The notes below the pieces were generated by a model. The model was not told where the DNA came from. It was given only the letters and a program-made list of their open reading frames with translations, and did not search any database. Shown piece by piece: positions 6,086-61,163 of a stretch of DNA of 64,000 bases. Position 1 is the stretch's first letter. Each line of letters opens with the position of its first letter. This DNA is from Escherichia coli (GTDB lineage: Bacteria > Pseudomonadota > Gammaproteobacteria > Enterobacterales > Enterobacteriaceae), in the NCBI RefSeq assembly GCF_036507355.1, contig NZ_AP027877.1, one strand, 5' to 3'. The position numbers and the translations under genes were made by a program.

Positions 6086-6877
6086 TTACATCGCGTTCAG
6101 ACGTTTTTGTGCCTGTTTAGCGCCATCAGTACCAGGGTATTTACTGATAACCTGCTGGTATACGGCTTTCGCTTTTGCGGTGTCACCTTTGTCCTGCATG
6201 ATGACGCCGACTTTAAACATCGCATCTGCAGCCTTTGGTGACTTCGGATAGTTTTTCACTACCGAAGCAAAATAGTACGCCGCATCATCTTTTTTACCCT
6301 TGTTGTAGTTTAACTGACCCAGCCAATAATTGGCGTTTGGCAGGTAAGTTGAATCAGGGTAATTTTTGATGAAATTCTGAAATGCCACCATTGCGTCATC
6401 CTGGCGGGATTTATCCTGCACCAGCGCAATAGCTGCATTGTAATCCGTGTTTGCATCACCGCTTTTCACCGGCGCGCCAGCATTCGCAGTACCAGCATCA
6501 GCTGTCGGCGTCGTTGATGCCGCCGCACCGCTTTGATCACCGCTGGTTGATTGCGCCGCTGCACCACCGCTGCTGAGGCTGTCGATCTGCAACAGGATCT
6601 GCTTTTGCCGCTCCACGACCTGATTCAGTTGATACTGATTTTCCTGAATCTGACCACGCAGGGAATCAATATCGGATTGATTATCAGAGAGTTGTTGCTG
6701 GAGTTGGGTTAAAAGCTGGCTGTGAGCATTAGAAATACGCTCAAGTTGAGTGACGCGGTCTTCGACCGAGCCTGAGCCGACACTACTGATTGGTGCCTGA
6801 GCAAAAGCGGCCCAGGGGGCCGCTATACCAACCAGTAACGACAGACTCAATAGTTGATGTCTGAAGTTACTGCTCAT
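6086..6877 (-). CDS. cpoB: cell-division coordinator CpoB (YbgF), TPR-repeat periplasmic protein
   Basis: 263-aa ORF with signal peptide, coiled-coil and TPR region; last gene of the tol-pal cluster. Confidence 0.9.
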   Translation of the reverse strand: MSSNFRHQLLSLSLLVGIAAPWAAFAQAPISSVGSGSVEDRVTQLERISNAHSQLLTQLQQQLSDNQSDIDSLRGQIQENQYQLNQVVERQKQILLQIDSLSSGGAAAQSTSGDQSGAAASTTPTADAGTANAGAPVKSGDANTDYNAAIALVQDKSRQDDAMVAFQNFIKNYPDSTYLPNANYWLGQLNYNKGKKDDAAYYFASVVKNYPKSPKAADAMFKVGVIMQDKGDTAKAKAVYQQVISKYPGTDGAKQAQKRLNAM

Positions 6878-16848: not shown

Positions 16849-17271
16849 ATGATACCATCTCAGATCTCTTTCAATACCCTTCCAGTCAATGCAACATACG
16901 CTTCAGAGACAACAGTTGACACACAAAAATTCTCTGACATCCTCTACTCAGCGGGGTGTTCCCTAAAGGATATGGCTTATCTGAGCAGATGTCTGGCATC
17001 AATACACCCGACTATCGCCAAAAACATTTATGAAACAGAAAATCTCAGCGATCAAAAATTACTGCATATTGATTGCCGTAGTACAAATGAAATCAAGATA
17101 AATATCTTTTTTGGTCAGCAAAGAGAAGGGTTAATTGAAATTAGTTCTGACACAGTTATTTTTTCGATACTGTCTTCATTGATTGACTCCGCCATTTCTA
17201 AATTTCAACACCAAAACCCGGTTAACGGTTTAGTTAATCCTGAAATATTGTATGAGGATTATACTGATTAA
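16849..17271 (+). CDS. hypothetical protein (140 aa), small acidic protein of unknown function
   Basis: co-oriented 80 bp downstream of the 314-aa ORF, same AT-rich composition. Confidence 0.5.
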   Translation: MIPSQISFNTLPVNATYASETTVDTQKFSDILYSAGCSLKDMAYLSRCLASIHPTIAKNIYETENLSDQKLLHIDCRSTNEIKINIFFGQQREGLIEISSDTVIFSILSSLIDSAISKFQHQNPVNGLVNPEILYEDYTD

Positions 17272-17818
17272 ATCCACCCTGTCGCGAAAAATGGCCTGCG
17301 TTATTGCCAGACGTAATAAAACCTTTGATTAACGTTACTCATACTGGTAGCACCTTCATGTACCTCTCTTTTTTACGAAAAATCAAAAGAGCTAACTAAG
17401 GTCATAATTCGCATGAATCATTAACCATTTGTTATTTTCAACATTATTTTTACATTAAGCAGAGATGAATTGCAGTGAAATTCGACTTAAATCTTATGAA
17501 ATGCATTTACTCATGGCTAAAACCACGTCACAAAAATGCAAATTAGAAGTAGATCACAATTATCTCAATACATTAAATCAAGTTAATTTTAAAAATTTAA
17601 CATTCATGACATTAGTTGACATAACACACTGAATTAACATGGAAATTTAAAAACACACTTTAAACAATCATTTCCCGAAAGACATTTTGAAAATAGATCA
17701 ATTGCAACATTACGGTCAGATAAAGACACTCCTGTGATATTAAACCTGTGCCGTTATGAACGGCCATAAATACGACGTGTGTAACTTATTTTACTCTCTG
17801 TCTTACAAAGGATTACCC

Positions 17819-18268
17819 ATGAAGAAAGCAACACTTGTGATTGGCGTTATTGGCGCGGACTGCCATGCAGTAGGCAATAAAGTTCTGGACCGCGTTTTTA
17901 GCAACCACGACTTCAGAGTCATTAATCTGGGCGTAATGGTCAGCCAGGACGAATATATTGATGCTGCCATTGAAACTGGCGCTGACGCGATTGTCGTCTC
18001 CTCTATCTATGGGCATGGCGATATCGACTGTCTGGGCATGCGCGAACGCTGCATCGAGCGTGGACTGGGGGACATCCTGCTCTATGTGGGCGGTAACCTG
18101 GTGGTCGGAAAACATGACTTCGCTGACGTGGAAACCAAATTCAAAGAGATGGGATTTGATCGCGTCTTTGCCCCAAGTCATGACTTAGAAGATGTTTGTC
18201 AGCTGATGGCCCACGATATCAACCAACGTCATGACATTGATACTCGTATTCTTGAAGAGGCTATCTGA
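17819..18268 (+). CDS. glmS: glutamate mutase sigma (S) subunit, B12-binding (methylaspartate mutase small subunit)
   Basis: [24 protein letters not shown]... contains the DxHxxG cobalamin-binding motif and resembles Clostridium GlmS/MutS; start set at the Met preceded by aaaggatt. Confidence 0.88.
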
Positions 18269-19656
18269 TGCAAATCGTCTCTGTCGATATTGGATCGACG
18301 TGGACCAAAGCAGCCCTCTTCACCCGGGAGGGGGACGCGTTAACGTTGGTTAACCACGTACTGACCCCAACCACCACCCATCATCTGGCGAAGGGGTTTT
18401 TCTCCAGCCTGAACCAAGTGTTAAACGTAGATAATGCCCTCCCCCTGTTAAACAGCGGTGAGGTTGCATTGAAGTATTCCTCCTCTGCCAAAGGTGGGCT
18501 GGCGGTTGCCGCAATGGGATTGGTGCCTTCTATCACCCTGGAAACCGCGAAAGTAACCGCTCACTCTGCGGGTGCTAAAATTGCGCAATATTACGCCTAC
18601 AAGCTGAACCGCCGTGATATCCAGGCACTGGAAGAAACGCAGCCCGATATTCTCTTGTTCACCGGCGGCACCGACGGCGGAGAAGAAAGCTACGGACTGA
18701 ATAACGCCCGTGTGCTGGCAGAATCCAAACTCGACTGCGCCATTATTTATGCCGGAAACCGGGATATTCAGGACGAGGTGCAGGAGCTCCTCGGGCATAA
18801 AGACCTGACCATCGTCGACAATGTTCTGCCCGATCTTGACCATCCGAACCCTTTAGCCGCACGCCAGGCTATTTGCGACATATTCCTTAAACGCATCGTT
18901 AAAGGGAAAGGGCTGGATGTCATTGTTGATAAAACAGGCGAAGAACCAATGCCGACACCATGGACGGTCTTTGAACTGGTCAAGGCAATCAGTAACGTCG
19001 ATCACAGCTGGAAAGAGTTCATGCTGATCGACATGGGCGGCGCAACCACCGATGTTTATTCCGTCTGTGCCAACACGCTCTCGCCCGACACCGTTTTACA
19101 CGGCGTACCGGAACCCTTCGTAAAACGGACGGTGGAAGGCGATCTGGGAATGCGCGTCTCGGCAGTGGTGGTTGGTGAAAGTGCGAAAGAGTTAGTCAAT
19201 GTGAATTTTGCTCAGCAACCCGCACAGCTGGACGCTTTTTATCATTACCTCCGTCATCTAGTCGCTCATCCCGACTACTTACCCGCAAATGCAGAAGAGA
19301 AATATTTCGATACCGTCCTGGCCGGACTGTGTGTGGGTTATGCCACCGAAAGACATGCGGGCACCAAAAAAGAGGTCTGCACCTGCGTCGGCAATGTCGA
19401 TTTACAGATGGGACGTGACCTGACAACCGTGCGTAAAGTCGTCGGATCCGGCGGATGGCTCTCGCGTGCCAGTCAGTTCGATATGCATCACTGGTTGAAA
19501 TACCGCGAGTTAAACGACGACGGTAAACGCATTCTCTTACCGACCGAATTTGAATATTACCGCGATTCCCGGGGGCTATTACCACTGCTGGCAAACGTCG
19601 CCAGAGTCGATCCGCTGGCCGCCGCGCGCACCAGTATTCAATGCTTAACCCTATAA
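18268..19656 (+). CDS. glmL: glutamate mutase accessory protein GlmL/MutL (actin-fold ATPase)
   Basis: 462-aa ORF between the S and E subunit genes as in clostridial mutS-mutL-mutE operons. Confidence 0.8.
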   Translation: MQIVSVDIGSTWTKAALFTREGDALTLVNHVLTPTTTHHLAKGFFSSLNQVLNVDNALPLLNSGEVALKYSSSAKGGLAVAAMGLVPSITLETAKVTAHSAGAKIAQYYAYKLNRRDIQALEETQPDILLFTGGTDGGEESYGLNNARVLAESKLDCAIIYAGNRDIQDEVQELLGHKDLTIVDNVLPDLDHPNPLAARQAICDIFLKRIVKGKGLDVIVDKTGEEPMPTPWTVFELVKAISNVDHSWKEFMLIDMGGATTDVYSVCANTLSPDTVLHGVPEPFVKRTVEGDLGMRVSAVVVGESAKELVNVNFAQQPAQLDAFYHYLRHLVAHPDYLPANAEEKYFDTVLAGLCVGYATERHAGTKKEVCTCVGNVDLQMGRDLTTVRKVVGSGGWLSRASQFDMHHWLKYRELNDDGKRILLPTEFEYYRDSRGLLPLLANVARVDPLAAARTSIQCLTL

Positions 19657-19674
19657 CAATTAAGGCTGCAATCA

Positions 19675-21120
19675 ATGGAACTTCGAAATAAGAAATTAAC
19701 CCATGACGAATTCATGACCGAGCGGCAACAGGTACTGAAAACCTGGGAAACCGGCAAGGATGTTGAAAACTTTGAAGATGGCGTTAAATACCAACAAACC
19801 ATCCCTGAGCATAAACGCTTCTCTCTTGCGCTGCTGAAAGCAGACAAGGAAGGTAAAACCCTTAGCCAACCGCGCGCAGGTGTGGCGCTGATGGACGAAC
19901 ACATCGAACTGCTGAAAACACTACAAGAAGAGTGCGATCTGCTGCCAAGCACCATCGATGCATATACCCGTCTGAATCGGTACGAAGAAGCGGCTGTAGG
20001 GATTAAAAAATCCATCGAAGCCGGAACCTCTAAACTGAACGGTTTACCGGTAGTTAACCATGGTGTCGCAGCTTGCCGTCGCCTCACCGAAACCCTGCAA
20101 AAACCGCTACAGATCCGCCACGGCACGCCAGATGCGCGTCTGCTGGCTGAAATCTCAATGGCCAGCGGCTTTACCAGTTATGAAGGCGGTGGCATTTCCT
20201 ACAACATTCCGTATGCCAAACGCGTAACGCTGGAAAAATCGATCCGCGACTGGCAGTACTGCGACCGTTTAATGGGGATGTATGAAGAACACGGGATCCG
20301 CATCAACCGCGAACCGTTTGGCCCACTAACGGGTACGCTGATCCCGCCGTTTATCTCGCATTCTATCGCGATAATCGAAGGCTTGCTGGCACTGGAACAG
20401 GGTGTGAAATCTATCACCGTTGGTTATGGCCAGGTCGGCAGCCTGACGCAGGATGTTGCGGCGATCCAGTCTCTGCGTGAACTTGCACACGAATATTTTC
20501 AGAGCTATGGCTATACCGACTATGAATTGAGTACCGTGTTTCACCAGTGGATGGGCGGCTTTCCGGAAGACGAATCGAAAGCGTTCGCTATTATCTCCTG
20601 GGGTGCAGCCGTCGCGGGGATGTCTGGTGCCACCAAAGTCATCACCAAAAGTCCGCACGAAGCCTGGGGTATCCCGACTGCCGCTGCCAACATTCAGGGG
20701 CTGAAAGCCTCCCGCCAGATGCTCAACATGGTCAATGAGCAGAAATTCCCGCCGTGCCCTGCGGTTGAACTGGAAATTGAACTGATTAAGAGCGAGGTTC
20801 GCGCTGTACTGAATAAAGTGTTCGAACTGGGTAATGGTGATATTGCGCGCGGTACGGTGCTGGCATTTGAAGCGGGCGTACTGGATGTGCCATTTGCGCC
20901 AGCCGCCTGCAACGCGGGCAATATTCTTCCGGTCCGTGACAACACCGGCGCGATACGCGTACTGGAAGCCGGAGCCGTTCCATTGCCAAAAGATATTCTC
21001 GATCTCCACCACGATTACGTTGCGGAACGCGCACGCTTTGAAGGACGCCAACCGACATTCCAGATGGTTGTAGATGACATCAATGCTGTATCCCACAGTA
21101 AATTAATAGGAAGACCATAA
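19675..21120 (+). CDS. glmE: glutamate mutase epsilon (E) catalytic subunit
   Basis: 481-aa ORF MELRNKKLTHDEFMTERQQVL... with extended similarity to clostridial GlmE (QPRAGVALMDEHIELL, PSTIDAYTR, GGGISYNIPYAK, REPFGPLTGTL, FQMVVDD). Confidence 0.9.
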   Translation: MELRNKKLTHDEFMTERQQVLKTWETGKDVENFEDGVKYQQTIPEHKRFSLALLKADKEGKTLSQPRAGVALMDEHIELLKTLQEECDLLPSTIDAYTRLNRYEEAAVGIKKSIEAGTSKLNGLPVVNHGVAACRRLTETLQKPLQIRHGTPDARLLAEISMASGFTSYEGGGISYNIPYAKRVTLEKSIRDWQYCDRLMGMYEEHGIRINREPFGPLTGTLIPPFISHSIAIIEGLLALEQGVKSITVGYGQVGSLTQDVAAIQSLRELAHEYFQSYGYTDYELSTVFHQWMGGFPEDESKAFAIISWGAAVAGMSGATKVITKSPHEAWGIPTAAANIQGLKASRQMLNMVNEQKFPPCPAVELEIELIKSEVRAVLNKVFELGNGDIARGTVLAFEAGVLDVPFAPAACNAGNILPVRDNTGAIRVLEAGAVPLPKDILDLHHDYVAERARFEGRQPTFQMVVDDINAVSHSKLIGRP

Positions 21121-22361
21121 TGAAAATAAAACAGGCTCTGTTCACCGCTGGCTACTCCTCATTCTATTTCGATGACCAGCAGGCGATAAAAAACGGAGCG
21201 GGTCATGACGGCTTTTTTTATACCGGGGAGCCGGTAACACAGGGGTTTAACGCCGTTCGTCAGGCCGGGGAGTGCGTATCGGTACAGTTGATTCTGGAAA
21301 ACGGCGCGGTCGCTGTAGGTGACTGTGCTGCCGTACAGTATTCCGGGGCAGGTGGTCGCGACCCACTGTTCCTCGCAGAGCTCTTTATTCCGTTCCTCAA
21401 CGACCATATCAAGCCATTACTGGTAGGCCGCGATGTGGATGCTTTCCTGCCGAATGCCCGTTTCTTCGACAAATTGCGTATTGACGGCAACTTGCTGCAT
21501 ACCGCCGTGCGCTACGGATTATCACAGGCGCTGCTTGATGCTACCGCGCTGGCAACCGGCCGTCTGAAAACTGAAGTGGTCTGTGATGAATGGCAGTTGC
21601 CACGCGTGGCGGAATCCATTCCATTATTTGGTCAGAGCGGCGACGATCGATATATCGCCGTCGATAAGATGATCCTTAAGGGCATCGACGTGCTGCCCCA
21701 TGCGCTGATTAATAACGTCGAAGAGAAGCTGGGCTTTAAAGGTGAAAAACTGCGCGAATATGTCCGCTGGTTGTCGGATCGCATTCTAAGCAAGCGCACC
21801 AGCGCACGCTACCACCCAACCTTGCACATCGATGTATACGGCACTATCGGTCTGATCTTCGATATGGATCCGCTTCGCTGTGCGCAATACATCGCCAGCC
21901 TGGAAAAAGAAGCGCAAGGCCTGCCGCTCTACATTGAAGGGCCGGTCGATGCCGGTAACAAGCCCGATCAAATTCGCCTGCTGACCGCGATTACCAAAGA
22001 GCTGACGCGCCTCGGTTCCGGCGTGAAAATTGTGGCCGATGAATGGTGTAACACCTACCAGGATGTTGTTGATTTCACTGATGCCGCCAGTTGTCACATG
22101 GTGCAAATCAAAACCCCGGATCTGGGCAGTATTCACAACATCGTCGATGCGGTTCTTTACTGCAACAGCCACAGCATGGAAGCGTACCAGGGCGGCACCT
22201 GCAATGAAACTGATGTCAGTGCCCGCACCTGTGTCCACGTCGCCCTTGCCGCTCGCCCTATGCGTATGCTGGTAAAGCCAGGGATGGGCTTTGACGAAGG
22301 CCTCGATATCGTCTTCAACGAAATGAATCGTACTATCGCGCTGTTGCAGGCTAAGGATTAA
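21120..22361 (+). CDS. mal: 3-methylaspartate ammonia-lyase
   Basis: 413-aa ORF; motifs GDCAAVQYSGAGGRDPLF, PHALINNVEEKLG, HMVQIKTPDLG match clostridial methylaspartase (enolase superfamily). Confidence 0.9.
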   Translation: MKIKQALFTAGYSSFYFDDQQAIKNGAGHDGFFYTGEPVTQGFNAVRQAGECVSVQLILENGAVAVGDCAAVQYSGAGGRDPLFLAELFIPFLNDHIKPLLVGRDVDAFLPNARFFDKLRIDGNLLHTAVRYGLSQALLDATALATGRLKTEVVCDEWQLPRVAESIPLFGQSGDDRYIAVDKMILKGIDVLPHALINNVEEKLGFKGEKLREYVRWLSDRILSKRTSARYHPTLHIDVYGTIGLIFDMDPLRCAQYIASLEKEAQGLPLYIEGPVDAGNKPDQIRLLTAITKELTRLGSGVKIVADEWCNTYQDVVDFTDAASCHMVQIKTPDLGSIHNIVDAVLYCNSHSMEAYQGGTCNETDVSARTCVHVALAARPMRMLVKPGMGFDEGLDIVFNEMNRTIALLQAKD

Positions 22362-22364
22362 CAA

Positions 22365-22565
22365 ATGGCTCGTTCTTTTAAAGTCTTATCGCCAACAGCA
22401 ATCCTCGGGTATGGATTCCCGGAAGAGAGCTTCCGCAAAGCGATGGCAGAATCACCCGATCTGATCGCCGTTGATGCAGGCTCTTCCGATCCAGGCCCCC
22501 ACTACCTCGGGCAGGCAAACCGTTTACCGATCGCGCAGGGGTCAAGCGCGATCTGCGCTATATGA
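22365..22565 (+). CDS. N-terminal segment of a DUF1446 (AtuA-like) protein, separated from the main ORF by a frame change
   Basis: 66-aa ORF ending in ATGA overlap with the next ORF; the next ORF's frame is open upstream to 22475, so the two likely form one gene. Confidence 0.45.
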   Translation: MARSFKVLSPTAILGYGFPEESFRKAMAESPDLIAVDAGSSDPGPHYLGQANRLPIAQGSSAICAI

Positions 22566-23734
22566 TCACCGCAGGCGTGCAAAATAATATACCGGTGGTG
22601 ATCGGAACGGCCGGCGGTTCTGGTGCCGCTCCACACCTGGAGTGGTGCCGAGAAATAATTCATGAGATTGCCCAGGAAGAGCACCTCTCGTTCTCGATGG
22701 CGTTGATCCCGGCAGACGTTGACAAAGCCATCGTCCACCAGGCGCTGGATAACGGCAAAATCACGGCGCTGGATTTTGTCCCGCCGTTAACCCACGACGC
22801 GATTGACGAAAGTACGTATATCGTCGCGCAAATGGGCATCGAACCCTTCCAGCGGGCGCTAAAAGAAGGCGCGCAAGTGGTGCTGGGTGGGCGCGCTTAC
22901 GACCCGGCCTGCTTTGCTGCGCTACCGATCATGCAAGGCTTTGATGAAGGTCTGGCGCTGCATTGTGGGAAAATCCTTGAATGCGCGGCAATCGCCGCAA
23001 CGCCCGGCTCAGGCTCTGACTGTGCGATGGGCATCATTGATGACAACGGCTTTACGCTGAAGACATTTAATCCGAAGCGTAAATTTACCGAAACGTCAGC
23101 AGCTGCACACACACTGTATGAGAAATCCGATCCCTACTTCCTGCCAGGACCTGGCGGCGTGTTGAACCTGAAAGGCTGCACATTTAAAGCAGTCAATGAC
23201 GGCGAAGTCTACGTCAGCGGTTCTAAGCATGAAGAAACGCCGTATGCCCTGAAACTGGAAGGTGCACGACGGGTGGGCTTCCGCTGTCTGACCATCGCCG
23301 GAACGCGCGACCCGATTATGATCGCCGGGATCGATAAACTCATCGATGAAGTCAAAACCAGCGTTTCGCGTAACCTGTCGCTCGACGATGACAGCATTCG
23401 CATCAATTTCCACCTGTACGGCAAAAACGGGGTGATGGGAGACCATGAACCGATGCAAACTGCCGGGCATGAGCTGGGGATTGTTCTTGATGTAGTTGCA
23501 CCGACCCAGGAAATTGCCAATAGCGTTTGCTCGCTGGTGCGCTCTACCATGCTGCACTACGGCTATGAAAACCGCATCGCTACCGCAGGTAATCTGGCGT
23601 TCCCGTTCTCCCCTTCTGATATCCAGGGCGGGCCGGTATACGAATTTTCCATATATCACCTGATTGAAGCCAACGACGCTCTGCGTTTTGATTTCCATAT
23701 TGAACAGGTGACGCCAGAAGGAGTTCAGGCATGA
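22562..23734 (+). CDS. DUF1446 (AtuA-like) family protein, main part
   Basis: 390-aa ORF; combined with the upstream 66-aa ORF gives about 456 aa, the usual DUF1446 size; followed by its usual small DUF4387 partner. Confidence 0.65.
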   Translation: MITAGVQNNIPVVIGTAGGSGAAPHLEWCREIIHEIAQEEHLSFSMALIPADVDKAIVHQALDNGKITALDFVPPLTHDAIDESTYIVAQMGIEPFQRALKEGAQVVLGGRAYDPACFAALPIMQGFDEGLALHCGKILECAAIAATPGSGSDCAMGIIDDNGFTLKTFNPKRKFTETSAAAHTLYEKSDPYFLPGPGGVLNLKGCTFKAVNDGEVYVSGSKHEETPYALKLEGARRVGFRCLTIAGTRDPIMIAGIDKLIDEVKTSVSRNLSLDDDSIRINFHLYGKNGVMGDHEPMQTAGHELGIVLDVVAPTQEIANSVCSLVRSTMLHYGYENRIATAGNLAFPFSPSDIQGGPVYEFSIYHLIEANDALRFDFHIEQVTPEGVQA

Positions 23735-24048
23735 AACAGTCAATTGTCTCACTGGCGCAAGTCATTCGTTCGAAAAATGCCGGACCTTACGAACTGGTTT
23801 TAGATATTTTATTTAAAACGAAAGAAAACTATGAGCGAGTTAAATCATCAGGGCAATTAACCCCAGAACTGATTGCGCGCTTATATCATGTTGAACCTGA
23901 CTTTATTCATCGTATTGTCTGGTTTGATCCTTCTAACGCAGTAAAAATCGTCATGCCACGAGATATTATCTCCGGGAATGTAGGTGACAATGATGTCTAT
24001 GGTGCACAGCAACATGCACCTTTATTAAATATGAGTTTCGATTTGTAA
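23731..24048 (+). CDS. DUF4387 family small protein (partner of DUF1446/AtuA-like proteins)
   Basis: 105-aa ORF translationally coupled (ATGA overlap) to the DUF1446 ORF. Confidence 0.6.
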   Translation: MKQSIVSLAQVIRSKNAGPYELVLDILFKTKENYERVKSSGQLTPELIARLYHVEPDFIHRIVWFDPSNAVKIVMPRDIISGNVGDNDVYGAQQHAPLLNMSFDL

Positions 24049-24131
24049 AAATCCGAATACTTTTAGCCAACTGACATCCCGTCACTTATTGCAGTTCAAC
24101 ACTTCAGCTATTTGTAAGGTTGTAATAGCAG

Positions 24132-24163
24132 GTAGATGCCTGAATCTCTATTCAGGCATCTAC
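24132..24163 (+). terminator. strong stem-loop between the DUF4387 gene and the transporter gene (terminator or attenuator)
   Basis: perfect 14-bp inverted repeat gtagatgcctgaat/attcaggcatctac with 4-nt loop, followed by a T-rich stretch. Confidence 0.4.
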
Positions 24164-24208
24164 TTCTCCTGATTCTGATTTATCGCCGTGCACCTGATGG
24201 AGGAAAAA

Positions 24209-25489
24209 ATGAAGAAAATAAGTTTAACCACGATGATTCTTTTGGCGCTGGTACTTGGAATGATTATCGGCGTAGTGCTCAATAACACTGCTTCACCGGA
24301 AACAGCAAAACTCTATGCGCAAGAAATATCGATATTCACGACGATTTTCTTACGACTGATAAAAATGATTATCGCTCCGTTAGTGGTCTCTACCCTGGTG
24401 GTAGGTATTGCTAAAATGGGCGATGCCAAAGCCCTTGGTCGTATTTTTTCTAAAACACTCTTTTTATTTATTTGCGCCTCATTGCTGTCAATTGCCTTAG
24501 GCTTGATAACGGTAAATTTCTTCATGCCAGGCACAGGAATTAATTTTGTTGCACACGGTGCCGAAACCACAGGAGTGGTCGCGTCAGAACCCTTTACGCT
24601 AAAAGTATTTATTTCGCATGCTTTCCCCACCAGCATTGTCGATGCCATGGCGCACAATGAAATTTTGCAAATCGTGGTGTTCTCAATTTTCCTCGGCTGT
24701 AGCCTGACGGCGATTGGCGAGAAAGGCAGCGCCATCGTTCACGCCTTAGATTCGCTGGCACATGCCATGTTAAAGCTCACTGGCTACGTCATGCTCTTCG
24801 CTCCCCTGACCGTATTCGCCGCTATTTCAGCATTGATTGCTGAACGAGGACTGGCAGTTATGGTGAGCGCCGGGATCTTTATGGGTGAATTTTATTTCAC
24901 CATGTTATTACTTTGGGTGCTGCTTATCGGTCTGGCCATCGTTTATGTCGGCCCCTGCATCAGACGCCTGACCCGCGCCCTTTCGGAACCCGCCCTGCTG
25001 GCATTTACCACATCCAGTTCTGAAGCGGCTTTTCCGGGAACGCTTGAAAAACTGGAGCAATTTGGCGTTTCCCCCAAAATTGCCAGCTTTGTCTTACCCA
25101 TTGGCTACTCATTTAATCTCGTTGGATCAATGGCCTACTGCTCCTTCGCCACAGTTTTCATCGCCCAGGCCTGCAATATCCATTTATCCATCGGTGAGCA
25201 AATCACCATGCTGTTGATCCTGATGTTGACCTCGAAAGGAATGGCTGGCGTACCACGCGCCTCAATGGTGGTTATCGCCGCCACGCTCAACCAGTTCAAT
25301 ATTCCGGAAGCGGGGCTGATCTTGCTGATGGGCGTTGATCCGTTCCTTGATATGGGGCGTTCCGCGACAAACGTCATGAGCAACGCAATGGGCGCTGCGA
25401 TGGTGAGTCGGTGGGAAGGCGAACATTTCGGCGAGGGCTGTCGGGGTAAAGCATTAAAACCCAATGAATCGAACGTTGCTCTGCCCTGA
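24209..25489 (+). CDS. dicarboxylate/amino acid:cation symporter (DAACS family; glutamate/aspartate or C4-dicarboxylate transporter)
   Basis: polytopic membrane ORF with DAACS-like N-terminus; start chosen at MKKISL preceded by a GGAGGA ribosome-binding site (ORF track starts 21 nt earlier at 24188). Confidence 0.8.
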   Translation: MKKISLTTMILLALVLGMIIGVVLNNTASPETAKLYAQEISIFTTIFLRLIKMIIAPLVVSTLVVGIAKMGDAKALGRIFSKTLFLFICASLLSIALGLITVNFFMPGTGINFVAHGAETTGVVASEPFTLKVFISHAFPTSIVDAMAHNEILQIVVFSIFLGCSLTAIGEKGSAIVHALDSLAHAMLKLTGYVMLFAPLTVFAAISALIAERGLAVMVSAGIFMGEFYFTMLLLWVLLIGLAIVYVGPCIRRLTRALSEPALLAFTTSSSEAAFPGTLEKLEQFGVSPKIASFVLPIGYSFNLVGSMAYCSFATVFIAQACNIHLSIGEQITMLLILMLTSKGMAGVPRASMVVIAATLNQFNIPEAGLILLMGVDPFLDMGRSATNVMSNAMGAAMVSRWEGEHFGEGCRGKALKPNESNVALP

Positions 25490-25596
25490 GGGGGATCTTA
25501 AGCAATCAGAAGCCAATGACTACGCATTTTTATAAGCCGGATCATGAAGTTAGACGGCAATTAAGTAACACTAACGTTTAAGGTGAAAAGTGAAAT

Positions 25597-27249
25597 ATGT
25601 CCAAACCATTTATCTGGCAAGAACCGTTTCTACAAAATAAAGACGGTACAGAATATACATTAATTAGCGATCAACATATTACAGTAACGGAATTAGACGG
25701 CGAAGAAGTGATAAAAATCGCTCCTGAAGCATTAACGCTGCTTGCCCGGCAGGCATTTTATGAAGCCTCTTTTTTCTTACGTTCCGCTCATTTGCAACAG
25801 GTCGCCAGCATTCTTAACGATCAGCAGGCCAGCAGTAATGATAAATACGTTGCGTTGCAGTTATTACGTAATGCTGAAGTCTCAGCAAAAGGGGTATTAC
25901 CCAACTGTCAGGATACCGGCACCGCAACTATTGTTGCCAGTAAAGGGCAACAGATATGGACCGGAAGTAACGACGCCGAAGCTTTAAGTAAAGGCATTTA
26001 CAGTACTTTCCAGGAAAATAATCTGCGCTTTTCACAAAATGCGCCGCTGGATATGTATACCGAAGTCAATACGCAAACCAATCTCCCGGCGCAGATTGAT
26101 ATCAGCGCTGTCGCTGGTGATGAGTACCATTTTCTCTGTGTTAATAAAGGGGGCGGCTCCGCCAATAAAGCCGCGCTTTATCAGGAAACCAAATCCTTAT
26201 TGCAACCAGAAAAACTGACCGCATTTTTAATCGAAAAAATGAAATCGCTGGGCACCGCTGCCTGCCCGCCTTACCACATCGCCTTTGCCGTCGGAGGGCT
26301 TTCAGCCGATCAAACCTTAAAAGTTGCCAAGCTGGCCTCAACGAAATATTACGACAATTTGCCCACCAGCGGAAACGAGCAGGGACAAGCATTCCGTGAT
26401 ATTGAGCTGGAAAAAGCGTTGCTCGAGGCCAGTCAGCAATTTGGTATTGGTGCACAATTTGGGGGGAAATATTTCGCTCATGATATTCGCGTCATTCGTC
26501 TGCCGCGTCACGGTGGCTCTTGCCCGATAGCTATGGCGCTCTCCTGTTCTGCCGATCGCAATATCAAAGCAAAAATTAACAAACACGGTATCTGGCTAGA
26601 AAAACTCGAACACAATCCGGGGCAATATATTCCAGCCTCATTGCGGGAAGAAAATCACGCGCAACATGTACAACTGGATCTAAACCGTCCGTTGCGTGAC
26701 GTGATGCTGGATCTCGCCAGATTACCGGTAGGTACCCGCGTGTCGTTAAGTGGTCCCATCGTAGTGGCGCGCGATATCGCCCACGCCAAAATAAAAGCGC
26801 GGCTGGATAGCGGCGAATCGATGCCGGAGTACCTGAAGCATCATATTGTCTATTACGCTGGCCCGGCGAAAACACCGGAGAACATGGCCTGCGGTTCACT
26901 GGGTCCAACCACGGGCGGTCGAATGGATGGTTATGTCGATACCTTCCAGGCGGCCGGCGGCAGTCTGGTGATGTTATCGAAAGGTAACCGCAGCCAGCAG
27001 GTCACCGATGCCTGTCACAAACATGGCGGCTTCAATCTGGGAAGTATTGGCGGTGCAGCTGCGTTACTGGCGCAAGAATATGTCAAAAGTCTGCGTTGCC
27101 TGGAATACCCGGAGCTGGGTATGGAAGCGGTGTGGATGATGGAAGTGGAAAATCTGCCCGCATTCATCCTGGTAGATGATAAAGGCAATAATTTCTTTAG
27201 TCAGTTTGAGCAGCAACACCGCTGCGCCAGTTGCCCTGCGGGACATTAA
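25597..27249 (+). CDS. fumD: class I (Fe-S) fumarate hydratase homologue, mesaconase/fumarase FumD type
   Basis: 550-aa ORF collinear with E. coli FumA ([40 protein letters not shown]); clustered with glutamate mutase and methylaspartase as described for fumD. Confidence 0.85.
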
Positions 27250-27258
27250 GGAAAATGA

Positions 27259-27861
27259 ATGGAAGCGCGAATTTCAACTGAACGGCATGTGCAGCGCCAA
27301 CAGAAATTGAAGGAACAGGTCGATACGCGCGTCGCGGCGGCGATAGAGAAAAAAGGGATCTTGATTGTTTTCACCGGCAACGGCAAAGGGAAATCCACTG
27401 CCGCGTTTGGTACTGTGACGCGCGCGGTGGGTCATGGCAAAACGGTGGGGGTTGCGCAGTACATCAAGGGGCAATGGGACAACGGCGAATACAACCTTCT
27501 CCAGCCGCTGGGGGTTGAGTTTCATATTATGGGAACCGGTTTTACCTGGGAGACACAGAACCGGCAAGCGGATATCGACGCGGCGAAAGAGGTCTGGTCG
27601 GAAAGCAAACGGATGCTGGCTGACAAGCGTTACGACTTAGTGGTGCTTGATGAGCTGACCTATATGCTGGCTTACCATTATTTGGATACCGAAGAAGTGA
27701 TCGCTTCTCTGCAAAACCGCCCGGCACAACAAAGTGTCATTGTCACCGGACGCGGTTGCCACAGTCAGATATTAAAAATGGCGGATACGGTAAGCGAAAT
27801 CCGCCCCGTCAAACATGCTTTTGATAACGGCATTCAGGCCCAGCCGGGTATAGACTGGTAA
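27259..27861 (+). CDS. cob(I)yrinic acid a,c-diamide / cob(I)alamin adenosyltransferase (BtuR/CobA family)
   Basis: 200-aa ORF with P-loop GNGKGKSTAAFG and high overall similarity to E. coli BtuR. Confidence 0.85.
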   Translation: MEARISTERHVQRQQKLKEQVDTRVAAAIEKKGILIVFTGNGKGKSTAAFGTVTRAVGHGKTVGVAQYIKGQWDNGEYNLLQPLGVEFHIMGTGFTWETQNRQADIDAAKEVWSESKRMLADKRYDLVVLDELTYMLAYHYLDTEEVIASLQNRPAQQSVIVTGRGCHSQILKMADTVSEIRPVKHAFDNGIQAQPGIDW

Positions 27862-27864
27862 TAA

Positions 27865-27897
27865 CTGCGCCTGGCATCCCGCCAGGCGCAGGTTTTA
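27865..27897. terminator. bidirectional intrinsic terminator between the adenosyltransferase gene and the convergent LysR gene
   Basis: ctgcgcctggc-atcc-gccaggcgcag hairpin followed by gtttta. Confidence 0.6.
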
Positions 27898-28557
27898 CAT
27901 CTCCTGCGGTACGACCGATTTCGCCAGCAACCATTCACGAAATTGCTGCAAGTGCGGTGAGTCAGACTTCTCTTCCTGCCACGTCATAATAAAACGATTA
28001 CCGGTACGAATAGGCACATCACAGGGAATCACCATATCGCCACTATCCAAATCATGTTGAATAGCGAAACGTGGTAACAGCGCCACGCCGAGATTAGAGC
28101 GCACGGCGGCAATCAGCATTGAAAGCAAATCGAAACGTGGTCCGTTATTGACCAACGGACTGCTAACGCCAGATAAAGCAAACCACTCTTCCCAGCCAGT
28201 AATACGGGTGCTTTGATGCAGAAGCGGTAACTCAGTAAGCAGTTCTGCCACTGACAGCTTTTGATCGGACATTGCAAGCAAACTGCCGCTGCATACCGGC
28301 AAAATCTCCTCATCAAAGAGATATTCTACTTCCGCCCAGGGCGCGCAAAAATTTTCGCGCATAATGACAGCATCGTACTCCCGATTAAGAAAATCGCCGT
28401 TATTAGCTAAAGAATGAATATTAACAATAATATCGGGATGTAACTTTGTGAATTCATGTAAATTTGGGATCAACCAGTGGGTACTAAAAGTAGGATTAAC
28501 GGCAAGTTCAATAACCTGAACCGTAGGCTGCCAGGTCATAATGGTATTGGTATCGCG
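27895..28557 (-). pseudogene. LysR-family transcriptional regulator, C-terminal effector-domain portion (gene interrupted by IS1)
   Basis: 214-aa ORF from an internal Met; reading frame continues upstream (RDTNTI) to the IS1 junction. Confidence 0.8.
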
Positions 28558-28612
28558 GGTGATGCTGCCAACTTACTGATTTAGTGTATGATGGTGTTTT
28601 TGAGGTGCTCCA

Positions 28613-28888
28613 GTGGCTTCTGTTTCTATCAGCTGTCCCTCCTGTTCAGCTACTGACGGGGTGGTGCGTAACGGCAAAAGCACCGCCGGACATCAGCGCT
28701 ATCTCTGCTCTCACTGCCGTAAAACATGGCAACTGCAGTTCACTTACACCGCTTCTCAACCCGGTACGCACCAGAAAATCATTGATATGGCCATGAATGG
28801 CGTTGGATGCCGGGCAACAGCCCGCATTATGGGCGTTGGCCTCAACACGATTTTACGTCACTTAAAAAACTCAGGCCGCAGTCGGTAA
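28613..28888 (+). CDS. insA: IS1 protein InsA
   Basis: 91-aa [46 protein letters not shown]... identical in character to IS1 InsA. Confidence 0.95.
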
Positions 28889-29310
28889 CCTCGCGCATAC
28901 AGCCGGGCAGTGACGTCATCGTCTGCGCGGAAATGGACGAACAGTGGGGCTATGTCGGGGCTAAATCGCGCCAGCGCTGGCTGTTTTACGCGTATGACAG
29001 GCTCCGGAAGACGGTTGTTGCGCACGTATTCGGTGAACGCACGATGGCGACGCTGGGGCGTCTTATGAGCCTGCTGTCACCCTTTGACGTGGTGATATGG
29101 ATGACGGATGGCTGGCCGCTGTATGAATCCCGCCTGAAGGGAAAGCTGCACGTAATCAGCAAGCGATATACGCAGCGAATTGAGCGGCATAACCTGAATC
29201 TGAGGCAGCACCTGGCACGGCTGGGACGGAAGTCGCTGTCGTTCTCAAAATCGGTGGAGCTGCATGACAAAGTCATCGGGCATTATCTGAACATAAAACA
29301 CTATCAATAA
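28807..29310 (+). CDS. insB: IS1 transposase InsB frame (expressed as InsAB' by -1 frameshifting)
   Basis: 167-aa ORF in the -1 frame overlapping the insA 3' end, typical IS1 organisation. Confidence 0.9.
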
Positions 29311-29325
29311 GTTGGAGTCATTACC

Positions 29326-29577
29326 GGTATCGCGTTCCAGCTTATTTAATGTTTCTTTTACTATCCCCAGGTAATACTTCCCAGCATCATTAAGAAAAAT
29401 GCGTTTTTTAGAGTGTGAAAATAACGGAGTACGTAAAAATTCCTCCAGCGCACTTACTTGTCTGAATACTGCACTTTGGGTTAACGCTAACTCCTCTGCC
29501 GCTCTGGTATAACTTTCATGACGTGCGACGACCTCAAAAGTCACCAGCAGTTCCGTTTTAGGTATTTTCCCTCGCAT
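29326..29577 (-). pseudogene. LysR-family transcriptional regulator, N-terminal HTH portion (gene interrupted by IS1)
   Basis: MRGKIPKTELLVTFEVVARHESYTRAAEELALTQSAVFRQVSALEEFLRTPLF... is a LysR-type HTH; the frame runs into IS1 after ...KLERDT. Confidence 0.8.
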
Positions 29578-30243
29578 AATGCCGTCCCTTAAAAATAGTT
29601 TAAACCATCAAAAATACATTACTTATTACGAAGTAATGGTAACCAAAGCAGCAATAAATAATTTATAAGAATCATGATTGACATTTATAAACCAGTAAGC
29701 CTGGCGTGACAAATATCTTAATCAGATAATAATAATCCGAAAAGCACAGCGCCTTTCGAATTATCCGGAATCACATTAAGTGAAAATTATTAAATTGATA
29801 TCATTTATCATATCTGTGGATATTATGATAAACAATCAACAAAGATTTTATTTTTGATTTATAGCATATCCCTCTAAGAATTTTTGCGATGCTGCAATAT
29901 CCGGGGTAAAGACCCGATCCTGGCTGACAAATGGCACGACTTGACGAAAAGCGGTGAACATCGCTTTTGTTGATTTACTTAACGCTACGGTCAAACGCTG
30001 GGAAGCCAGTGCATCAGGTAACGATTCGAAATTCGCCGTCGTTCTTATTCGTGGCTTGCGGTCGGTTGCGGCAATCCACAGTGGCTGTGGTCATGCAGTC
30101 AAGCCTGCAGTCAGATTTCGACCGTGGTTAACCGTTTAAGGCATAAAAAAGGCCATCATACGATGGCCAACCATGTCGAAACCGACAGCCCTTCGCCATT
30201 CCTGTAGAGGGAAGCGGCGAGGGCTATTTCTTATTACAGATAT

Positions 30244-31113
30244 TTATTTCAGAACAGTTTTCAGTGCTTCACCGATATCCGCCAGGCTGCGAACGGTTTT
30301 CACGCCTGCGGCTTCCAGAGCAGCGAATTTCTCATCCGCAGTCCCTTTCCCACCGGCAATGATGGCACCCGCGTGGCCCATACGTTTGCCTTTCGGCGCA
30401 GTCACACCAGCGATGTAACCCACAACTGGCTTGGTAACGTGCTCTTTGATGTACGCAGCTGCTTCTTCTTCAGCGCTACCGCCGATCTCACCGATCATCA
30501 CGATCGCTTCGGTCTGCGGATCTTTTTCGAACATTTCGAGAATGTCGATAAAGTTAGAGCCAGGGATCGGGTCACCGCCGATACCGACACAGGTCGACTG
30601 ACCGAAACCGTAATCCGTGGTCTGTTTAACCGCTTCATAGGTCAGTGTACCGGAACGGGAAACGATACCCACTTTACCCGGTTTGTGAATGTGACCCGGT
30701 TGGATACCAATTTTGCATTCACCCGGGGTGATAACGCCTGGGCAGTTCGGGCCGATCATACGAACGCCGGCTTCATCCAGTTTCACTTTCACAGTCAGCA
30801 TATCCAGCGTCGGGATGCCTTCAGTGATGGTGATAATCAGTTTGATGCCTGCGTCGATGGCTTCCAGAATGGAGTCTTTGCAGAACGGTGCTGGTACGTA
30901 GATAACAGAAGCGGTAGCGCCAGTAGCAGCAACAGCTTCACGCACGGTGTTGAACACCGGCAGGCCGAGGTGGGTAGTACCGCCTTTACCTGGAGTTACG
31001 CCACCAACCATTTTGGTGCCGTATGCAATGGCCTGTTCAGAGTGGAAAGTCCCCTGGCTACCGGTAAAGCCCTGGCAGATAACCTTGGTGTTTTTATCAA
31101 TTAAAATGGACAT
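30244..31113 (-). CDS. sucD: succinyl-CoA synthetase alpha subunit
   Basis: 289-aa ORF matching SucD. Confidence 0.97.
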
Positions 31114-56567: not shown

Positions 56568-56573
56568 ATAATA

Positions 56574-56612
56574 AAAAAGCCGGGAAGATGTTATTTTCTT
56601 CCCGGCTTTTTT
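56574..56612. terminator. bidirectional intrinsic terminator between the symE-like gene and the Rhs immunity gene
   Basis: aaaaagccgggaaga...tcttcccggctttttt hairpin flanked by A and T runs. Confidence 0.7.
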
Positions 56613-56904
56613 AAAGTTTATTTATAGCTTGGTTAATTTCAAATAATAATGAGACAATATCTTTCGCAGAACCATTATAAATGGGGGTATCCCAATCAAA
56701 GTCCTTTATTAAACAAATATAAAAATTCCCATTTAAATTAAAAGATGGTCGCCACCCAACATCCAAAAGATACCCACCAGGATATTCAACTTGGAGCATA
56801 TCTTCCTTAAGTTCATCTCGCTGTTCATTAAGAGGGATGCTTTGTTTCAGGGAGAAGTCATTAAAAATTACATTCCCTTTTTTTCCTAAGAAATCAATGT
56901 TCAT
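56611..56904 (-). CDS. putative Rhs toxin immunity protein
   Basis: 97-aa AT-rich ORF whose start overlaps the Rhs stop (ATGA), the classic position of Rhs immunity genes. Confidence 0.65.
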   Translation of the reverse strand: MNIDFLGKKGNVIFNDFSLKQSIPLNEQRDELKEDMLQVEYPGGYLLDVGWRPSFNLNGNFYICLIKDFDWDTPIYNGSAKDIVSLLFEINQAINKL

Positions 56905-60380: not shown

Positions 60381-61163
60381 AATGATATGAGTCCTTTTTA
60401 ATTAATAAATTATTTAATGATGGTTTTTGTTTATTTTTAGTCATGAAAATGATACCCATCACTGCTTTACAGCACACTTTATCTTTCCAGCCATAATCAC
60501 TAATAATATTAAGCAATTACCAATATTTACACCGACCAGAGCGGATACATAGTTATGTATTTAACAATCCCAATATATTCACTATGCAAATAAAACCACT
60601 AGTAACAGACACGCTACCGCCTCCATATAAAAATGGACACCTTATAAAATTGTATCTTGCATAGAAAAAGCTGAAATATCGGATGCGTTTTAATTATCCA
60701 CTATAAGTCTATAAGCTTTTTATTAACAACAAAACATCTTATTGGATTAGATATGTTAACAATTAATTATTCTTAATATATCAATAAAGTATATATTACT
60801 CTCTTTACTATCTGCTTTTCTTGCGGTAGCGATACTAATAGCAAAATTCGGAATTTATTTAGATGCTGGAATTAGAAAAAGGGATGGCGGCCTTCTCACC
60901 TTACCCTGAAGTCTCAGGAAAGTGTGTAAGGAAGTATGCAACCTAACTGGAGATTTCTGATGATCTAGCCGCTTAGAGCGACAATGAAGGTGACCGCATC
61001 CTGGGTAGCCCTATGAAAGGATACTATTGAAACTTGATGCTAAAACAGTGATGAAATGAATAACACGATGGAAACGTCTTCCATGTTAATTATCATGGAA
61101 GACGTTGATGTAAAATACCTAAACCAGCCCCCTGATACGAGGCTGGCTTAAGCGCGCAGGCAA

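Follow-up and report, generated by a model that had tools for sequence, protein, structure and literature searches.

A perfect stem-loop in the methylaspartate island of Escherichia coli, at positions 24132-24163 of the window (the whole 64,000-nt stretch of DNA analyzed here), is most likely an ordinary mRNA boundary between the enzyme genes and the transporter gene of the cluster, and not a classical terminator. Its structure, the compensatory conservation of that structure, its strand, its missing U-tract and its position at a segment boundary are established. As to its function, we tentatively infer, at a little below an even chance, a protective or processing stem-loop that stabilizes the six-gene segment upstream and uncouples gltP-fumD-cobO from it.

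The window matches E. coli of the O157, O55 and O145 type. The locus is a methylaspartate-pathway (glutamate-fermentation) island located between cydA and sucD. Its genes follow the order glmS, glmL, glmE, methylaspartate ammonia-lyase, an AtuA-family gene and DUF4387, then a 160-nt gap, and then the symporter, FumD and CobO genes, with a convergent LysR-family gene closing the cluster 3' of cobO (Table 1). The labels that an earlier note had given to these genes from the letters alone (mutase, lyase, DUF4387, transporter, class I fumarase, adenosyltransferase) were all confirmed, and the FumD protein of the methylaspartate cluster has been characterized as a mesaconase by Kronen and Berg (PMC4682846). 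The spacer is the sole long non-coding gap dividing the six packed genes from gltP-fumD-cobO, and the hairpin lies within it, 83 nt past the DUF4387 stop codon and 45 nt ahead of the symporter ATG. Around the symporter start, the sequence CC(T/G)ATGGAG is conserved across all genera aligned. A promoter scan returned no sigma-70-like promoter on the + strand of the spacer in either E. coli or C. braakii, and Rfam scans gave no match up to E = 10 across window positions 17000-31000; five orthologous spacers were likewise without a match with the cutoff at E = 1. At the other end of the cluster, about 115 nt upstream of glmS, E. coli and Citrobacter have in common a box, ATTTTGAAAATAGATCAATTGC (window 17684-17705; L069:2861-2884), which includes TTGA-N7-TCAA, with a spacing that exceeds the FNR consensus by one base, and which may be a regulatory site of the main promoter.

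Table 1. Features around the stem-loop, in window coordinates.
Feature	Position	Strand	Sequence or remark
Upstream block, six overlapping or tightly packed genes glmS-glmL-glmE-mal-atuA-DUF4387	17819..24048	+	
DUF4387 gene	23731-24048	+	Pfam PF14330, E 2.6e-39
Intercistronic spacer, 160 nt, contains the hairpin	24049..24208	+	
Hairpin 5' arm	24132-24145	+	GTAGATGCCTGAAT
Hairpin apical loop	24146-24149	+	CTCT (CUCU as RNA)
Hairpin 3' arm	24150-24163	+	ATTCAGGCATCTAC
Tail 3' of the stem	24164..24178	+	UUCUCCUGAUUCUGA; no U-tract
Symporter Shine-Dalgarno and start	24199..24211	+	GGAGG 24199-24203, ATG 24209-24211
Downstream block gltP-fumD-cobO	24209..27861	+	
SDF-family (GltP-like) symporter	24209-25489	+	PF00375
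FumD, class I fumarase/mesaconase	25597-27249	+	
CobO adenosyltransferase	27259-27861	+	
Stem-loop after cobO	27865..27891	+	passes terminator score, d = +2.9

Direct reading of the sequence gives a perfect 14-bp inverted repeat around a 4-nt loop, with 100% complementarity between the arms. The earlier note was thus correct in describing a perfect stem-loop at 24132-24163 and in placing it between the DUF4387 and transporter genes, inside the 160-nt spacer that separates them. As RNA, the stem can be lengthened to 16 bp through the optional pairs G24131.U24164 and A24130-U24165 (span 24130-24165), and the folding energy ranges from -21 to -24.7 kcal/mol depending on the version of the stem (14-16 bp). 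Compared with shuffled sequence, the local fold (-24.7 kcal/mol) has a z of -5.3 and was equaled by 0 of 200 shuffles; the whole 160-nt spacer folds at -42 kcal/mol (z = -2.4). Analytically, 0.002 perfect stems of at least 14 bp with loops of 3-10 nt are expected per 64 kb, and a 14-bp perfect stem was reached in 1 of 200 dinucleotide shuffles of the window. The hairpin is no product of chance. By perfect stem length it ranks second in the 64-kb window, behind a 17-bp stem-loop at 56572-56613.

Orthologues of the locus were collected with a protein-anchored scan for DUF4387, using one genome per species, which yielded 58 loci. Spacers alignable with that of E. coli are present in Citrobacter, Klebsiella, Enterobacter, Lelliottia, Pluralibacter, Buttiauxella, Salmonella enterica arizonae/diarizonae and another Escherichia species, and their hairpins occupy the same alignment columns with largely different sequence (e.g. 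GGCGUGCGUCUGAGC-UGCUGUCCAG-GCUCAGGCGCACGCC). Covariation was assessed for a 15-pair helix over 36 spacers from about 10 genera. Standard pairs are formed in 93.6% of cells, both sides have changed in compensatory fashion at 13 of the 15 pairs, and a single pair takes up to 4-5 pair types across genera. The observed pairing and covariation were matched by 0 of 500 column shuffles, and pairing fell to 20-48% when the partner columns were slid by 1-3 positions as a control. The same helix was predicted independently by RNAalifold, and a covariance model matches the window at 24127-24170 with 43.2 bits (E 5e-11). Among the helix cells, G.U wobbles outnumber A.C mismatches by 55 to 14; read from the opposite strand, the G.U pairs would become mismatches. 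Since a DNA palindrome or an antisense RNA would give no such bias, the asymmetry points to an RNA stem in the sense transcript, not a DNA operator, as the structure under selection.

The dimensions of the stem vary from lineage to lineage, with 7-16 bp in the stem and 4-11 nt in an apical loop whose sequence is not conserved, and a core CCTGA...TCAGG is kept in most genera. The variability of stem length and loop is that expected for a barrier stem, as opposed to a recognition site. A constant ~45-50 nt lie between the stem and the gltP ATG in E. coli, sp. MOD1 and the Citrobacter group. A strong hairpin occurs soon after the DUF4387 stop codon in every lineage examined, including the non-alignable Yersinia, Pseudescherichia and Morganella, and it persists where gltP is missing and DUF4387 is followed by fumD, in Escherichia whittamii and sp. 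E1V33. This retention in the absence of gltP suggests that the stem is tied to the end of the upstream block. In the latter two genomes (E1V33, L004:6316-6586; E. whittamii, L005:6316-6606), which lack a symporter gene, a spacer of 270-290 nt separates DUF4387 from fumD and carries a 13-bp hairpin with a CCUG/CAGG core ~33 nt past the DUF4387 stop codon; the E. whittamii hairpin is analogous and possibly homologous to that of E. coli, the automatic alignment being ambiguous. Insertions of about 120-190 nt are found in the spacers of two further genomes, directly after the stop codon in K. oxytoca (L024:6329-6515) and 3' of the stem in C. amalonaticus S646 (L013:about 6455-6575), where a repeat has been inserted and the hairpin is degraded. 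Both insertions presumably resemble ERIC/IRU repeats, and S646 provides a single hint that maintenance of the stem depends on an intact spacer.

Within E. coli, the locus is present as a single copy per genome in 1123-1124 of 5426 complete genomes. The allele seen in the window, with its perfect stem, accounts for 610 of 1124 records, and the frequent variants alter the loop or turn a pair into a wobble: A24154G, which makes a U.G pair, in 316 records, and A24136G, which makes a G.U pair, in 96. Another 32 records fall in a band of 90-95% identity, of which the one fetched combines a CTCT>TTTT loop with A24154G, and the pair-breaking variants T24161C and C24157G fall among the remaining 70. 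Assuming that all 32 lower-band records resemble the fetched one, the stem is fully paired in about 94% of carriers. In E. coli strain 100416 (L060:2249-3000), an IS1 insertion/deletion has removed the DUF4387 gene together with the 5' arm of the hairpin, with its junction near window position 24139/24140. A Collinsella sp. metagenome-assembled genome includes a contig (JAIJJM010000101.1, L002) that shows 100% identity to the E. coli DUF4387 gene, spacer and hairpin, and that is probably E. coli contamination of the bin.

The methylaspartate island is decaying in several strains, with different strains losing different genes. In the window, the AtuA-family gene (22365-23734) has suffered a 1-nt deletion at about 22508 relative to O145 RM9872, which leaves ORFs of 66 aa and 390 aa. 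The LysR-family gene (27895-29577) is split by an IS1 whose left end lies at 28558, leaving a contiguous 214-aa substrate-binding part (27895-28539), and the IS1 transposase ORF spans 28807-29310. In O145 RM9872 the LysR gene is intact (301 aa), and frameshifts are found in glmL and the ammonia-lyase gene. The hairpin is still perfect in the window despite the IS1-cut LysR gene, but the decay of the island makes its function in this particular strain uncertain.

Termination was evaluated with a d'Aubenton-Carafa-type score, d, for which positive controls ranged from +2.9 to +36.2. The hairpin has the stable stem-loop of an intrinsic terminator and lacks the U-rich tract that should follow it: with its tail UUCUCCUG..., it reaches d = -10.2, below the threshold, and was not called by the terminator scan. 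Of the first 4 residues of the E. coli tail, 3 are U, so some intrinsic termination is conceivable, and its T-score is 2.40, versus 4.0-5.1 for most terminator controls and 1.99 for the weakest (the cobO terminator). Nor is a U-tract conserved among orthologues. In typical members of the Citrobacter group the tail begins with ACCCUACA and has a T-score of 0.05-0.13, and the hairpins of this group score between -35 and -64, with the exception of Citrobacter sp. R56 at -7. The sole counterpart above 0 is the hairpin that follows DUF4387 in Yersinia alsatica, which precedes a real U-run, UUUUUUCU (d = +10.3); that of Pseudescherichia scores -4.7. On the + strand of the cluster, one stem-loop passes the threshold, that after cobO, which is the likely end of the transcription unit, and the hairpin is one of three that stay below it and the sole non-coding one among them. 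A classical intrinsic terminator was rejected on the grounds of the sub-threshold score and of tails without a U-tract in E. coli and typical Citrobacter-group members. In annotation, the hairpin should not carry a terminator label. The sequence past the stem is notable for its base composition in the Citrobacter group, where C makes up 38% and G 9% of the first 30 nt, placing them in the top 0.3% of windows; in E. coli the composition is unremarkable, with 10 C versus 6 G and a weak C-over-G bias.

Three other hairpins of the window were noted in the course of this analysis. The last codons of DUF4387 encode a small terminator-like hairpin (24001-24020, GGUGCACAGCAACAUGCACC then UUUAUUAAAU), which, being below threshold (d = -19.9) and kept just partly in other genera, probably arises incidentally from the conserved peptide YGAQQHAPLL. 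The 17-bp palindrome at 56572-56613 (TAAAAAAGCCGGGAAGA...TCTTCCCGGCTTTTTTA) is flanked by A- and T-runs on both sides, scores d = +29.5 and looks like a bidirectional intrinsic terminator. At 61073-61106, a near-perfect 34-bp palindrome (AACGTCTTCCATGTTAA/TTATCATGGAAGACGTT) has a 13-bp perfect outer stem.

The high stability of the hairpin and its missing U-tract indicate that it most likely acts after or alongside transcription. In the reading that we tentatively prefer, that of a protective or processing stem-loop, the cluster would be co-transcribed across the spacer, and the hairpin would form in the sense-strand mRNA, in the untranslated gap after the sixth cluster gene. Transcripts would end or be cut downstream of the stem, through the action of Rho in the untranslated spacer or of an endonuclease, and 3'-to-5' exonucleases would shorten them as far as the stem. 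The expected outcome would be a stable glmS-to-DUF4387 segment, with the gltP-fumD-cobO part made or kept at a different level. The earlier note had read the hairpin as transcriptional punctuation, by attenuation or by differential mRNA stability. That idea is supported in part: the hairpin is a selected sense-strand structure at a segment boundary, as punctuation of a polycistronic mRNA would predict, and this is evidenced by covariation, by the excess of G.U over A.C and by the wobble and loop nature of the variants. Attenuation by classical intrinsic termination is not supported, given d = -10.2 against +3 to +36 for the controls and orthologue tails that are almost free of U, so differential stability fits better. 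The searchable literature yielded no usable transcript evidence for ECs0750-0757 or for the enzymes of the cluster.

A genome-wide survey (PMC5927463) describes conserved protective stem-loops at segment boundaries in about 12% of E. coli operons. Like those of malE-malF, pufBALMX and menBCE (PMC5927463), the hairpin is a stable sense-strand stem-loop without a U-tract, which that class does not require, located at a segment junction and conserved in structure between Enterobacteriaceae. The expected outcome, here as in those systems, would be unequal mRNA levels of co-transcribed genes. Two differences should be kept in mind: the malEFG element is a multi-copy REP whereas the present hairpin is single-copy, and most of the surveyed elements (PMC5927463) are located within the coding sequence downstream, while the hairpin is intergenic. 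The hairpin also resembles the stem-loops at Rho-dependent 3' ends, being energetically stable and having neither a U-rich tail nor an upstream A-tract. The C-over-G bias downstream of such stem-loops is strong in the Citrobacter-group orthologues and weak in E. coli, however, and the ~45 nt of untranslated RNA between the stem and the gltP start offer little length for a rut site. Judged by its anatomy, the hairpin would be expected to act in the manner of the protective stem-loops found in differentially decaying operons and at Rho-dependent 3' ends. Intrinsic terminators and attenuators between co-oriented genes, of which the rplL-rpoB intercistronic attenuator is an example, share with it a strong stem-loop that could lower downstream expression, but differ in the U-tract, which is absent in E. 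coli and the Citrobacter group and present in the Yersinia alsatica counterpart. REP/BIME and ERIC elements are likewise intergenic palindromes of enterobacterial operons, yet they occur in many copies per genome.

Further considerations temper the preferred reading of a protective or processing stem-loop: the constraint and the second hairpin seen in the Citrobacter group hint at a region more elaborate than a simple barrier, and template-switch mutation can renew perfect palindromes, mimicking compensatory change. The hairpin might instead be a leaky intrinsic terminator or attenuator, which would stop a fraction of polymerases and lower the transcription of gltP-fumD-cobO relative to the enzyme genes. 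We regard this as unlikely but worth keeping in view, since the E. coli tail starts with UUCU and its score lies just under the threshold, the weakest control scoring +2.9. The true U-run of Yersinia alsatica and the score of Pseudescherichia suggest, moreover, that the ancestral role may have been to end transcripts after DUF4387 or to reduce their number. What speaks against it is that the stem covaries even though in Citrobacter, Klebsiella, Enterobacter, Salmonella and Buttiauxella it precedes the U-poor ACCCUACA, and that in E. coli the first two U residues of the tail would be taken up into the G.U and A-U extension of the stem. A role in the 5' leader of gltP seems no likelier than leaky attenuation. 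Here the hairpin would be a 5' stabilizing stem left after upstream cleavage, for which the papBA-type model of 5' protection (PMC5927463) is a precedent, or a helix of a larger RNA controlling gltP translation or read-through. The constant distance between stem and ATG would be explained, as would the AU-rich single-stranded sequence upstream of the stem and the state of the Citrobacter-group spacer, which is constrained more than synonymous sites and combines a possible long-range helix with a second hairpin that covaries. E. coli, though, has neither that second hairpin nor the conserved blocks; the apical loop is unconserved, no Rfam family matches, the long-range helix is without two-sided covariation, and the hairpin persists after DUF4387 in lineages without gltP.

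The remaining explanations place the selected feature in the DNA or dispense with selection altogether. A perfect palindrome in a 160-bp spacer, with a CCTGA...TCAGG core in most genera and a LysR-family gene at the end of the cluster, could be the operator of a dimeric regulator, such as the LysR-type protein of the island, at an internal gltP promoter. An operator is expected to conserve half-site sequence and spacing without strand asymmetry; here 13 of 15 positions have changed together in both arms, the arms range from 7 to 16 bp and the spacing from 4 to 11, and the bias of 55 G.U against 14 A.C is unexpected for recognition of duplex DNA. With neither E. coli nor C. braakii showing a sigma-70-like promoter on the + strand of its spacer, and with a hairpin that is perfect although the LysR gene is cut by IS1, an operator appears highly improbable. 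It is also doubtful, if less extremely so, that the hairpin has no function and is a neutral palindrome, either young or renewed by quasi-palindrome template-switch mutation. Such neutrality would agree with the decay of the island in E. coli (frameshifts in atuA, glmL and mal; IS1 in LysR), with the degraded stem of C. amalonaticus S646 and with the report that methylaspartate ammonia-lyase activity was not detected in O157:H7 ATCC 700728 (PMC4682846). It agrees poorly with a stem kept in the same place over about 10 genera with many independent pair types, with the marked strand asymmetry, or with the concentration of variants in loop and wobble positions among 1124 E. coli records.

Several other identities were considered and rejected. 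Neither a pattern search of the window combined with a 44-mer BLAST against 5426 E. coli genomes, nor covariance model R1 run over 350 kb of related sequence, returned anything other than this locus, which excludes a repeat family (REP, MITE or IS end). Targeting of the C/A-rich boxes of the spacer (ACACAACAAC-like) by the GcvB sRNA was dismissed because GcvB R1 duplex energies do not surpass those of dinucleotide shuffles (z about 0). A comparison of the gltP spacer with the region upstream of Citrobacter glmS gave no meaningful common regulator box, just an AT-rich 10-mer and CCCTACA near both ribosome-binding sites, the latter of which may be chance. A short reading frame across the hairpin, starting at ATG 24137 or, in Citrobacter, at an ATG of the conserved block, is contradicted by spacer lengths that differ by non-multiples of 3 and by an unconserved start. 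By inspection, there are no core-site motifs and no nearby integrase to suggest an integron attC or other recombination site.

The spacer of the Citrobacter group (L037:6316-6492; alignment A1 columns 1-185) presents features beyond the shared stem. Its conservation is 0.85, versus 0.66-0.70 at 4-fold degenerate sites, and it contains a second covarying hairpin at columns 27-35/55-63, in which G.U cells outnumber A.C cells by 53 to 1. A possible long-range helix, GGUUGGU/ACCARCC, has five variable positions, all of them wobble-compatible and with one-sided changes. Near-invariant blocks in the spacers of the Citrobacter/Klebsiella/Enterobacter/Salmonella arizonae group (TTCATGCGGTTGGTCAC, ACCCTACA, TTTATCCGATGGAG), and near-invariant single-stranded blocks of the Citrobacter-type RNA (UUCAUGCGGUUGGUCAC, ACCCUACA, UUUAUCCGAUGGAG), complete the picture; the conserved blocks of the group are absent from E. 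coli. It is conceivable, though we consider it a distinctly slim prospect, that the E. coli hairpin is the sole universally retained helix of an undescribed cis-regulatory RNA of ~170 nt gating gltP and the genes downstream. The full candidate RNA is found in Citrobacter, Klebsiella, Enterobacter, Salmonella arizonae/diarizonae, Buttiauxella, Lelliottia and Pluralibacter, corresponds to no Rfam family, and could respond to a metabolite, a protein or Rho. If real, it would gate the glutamate transporter and the downstream genes of a B12-dependent glutamate-fermentation cluster.

About a fifth of complete E. coli genomes, O157:H7, O55:H7 and O145 among them, carry the methylaspartate island, as do many opportunistic Enterobacteriaceae; its expression and regulation are essentially unstudied. 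The hairpin is an unannotated element of an ordinary kind and, read as a protective stem-loop, would add a clean, covariation-supported example to those that lack a U-tract. A conserved RNA structure at the boundary between enzyme and transporter genes would provide a mutable handle on the balance between the two halves of the cluster.
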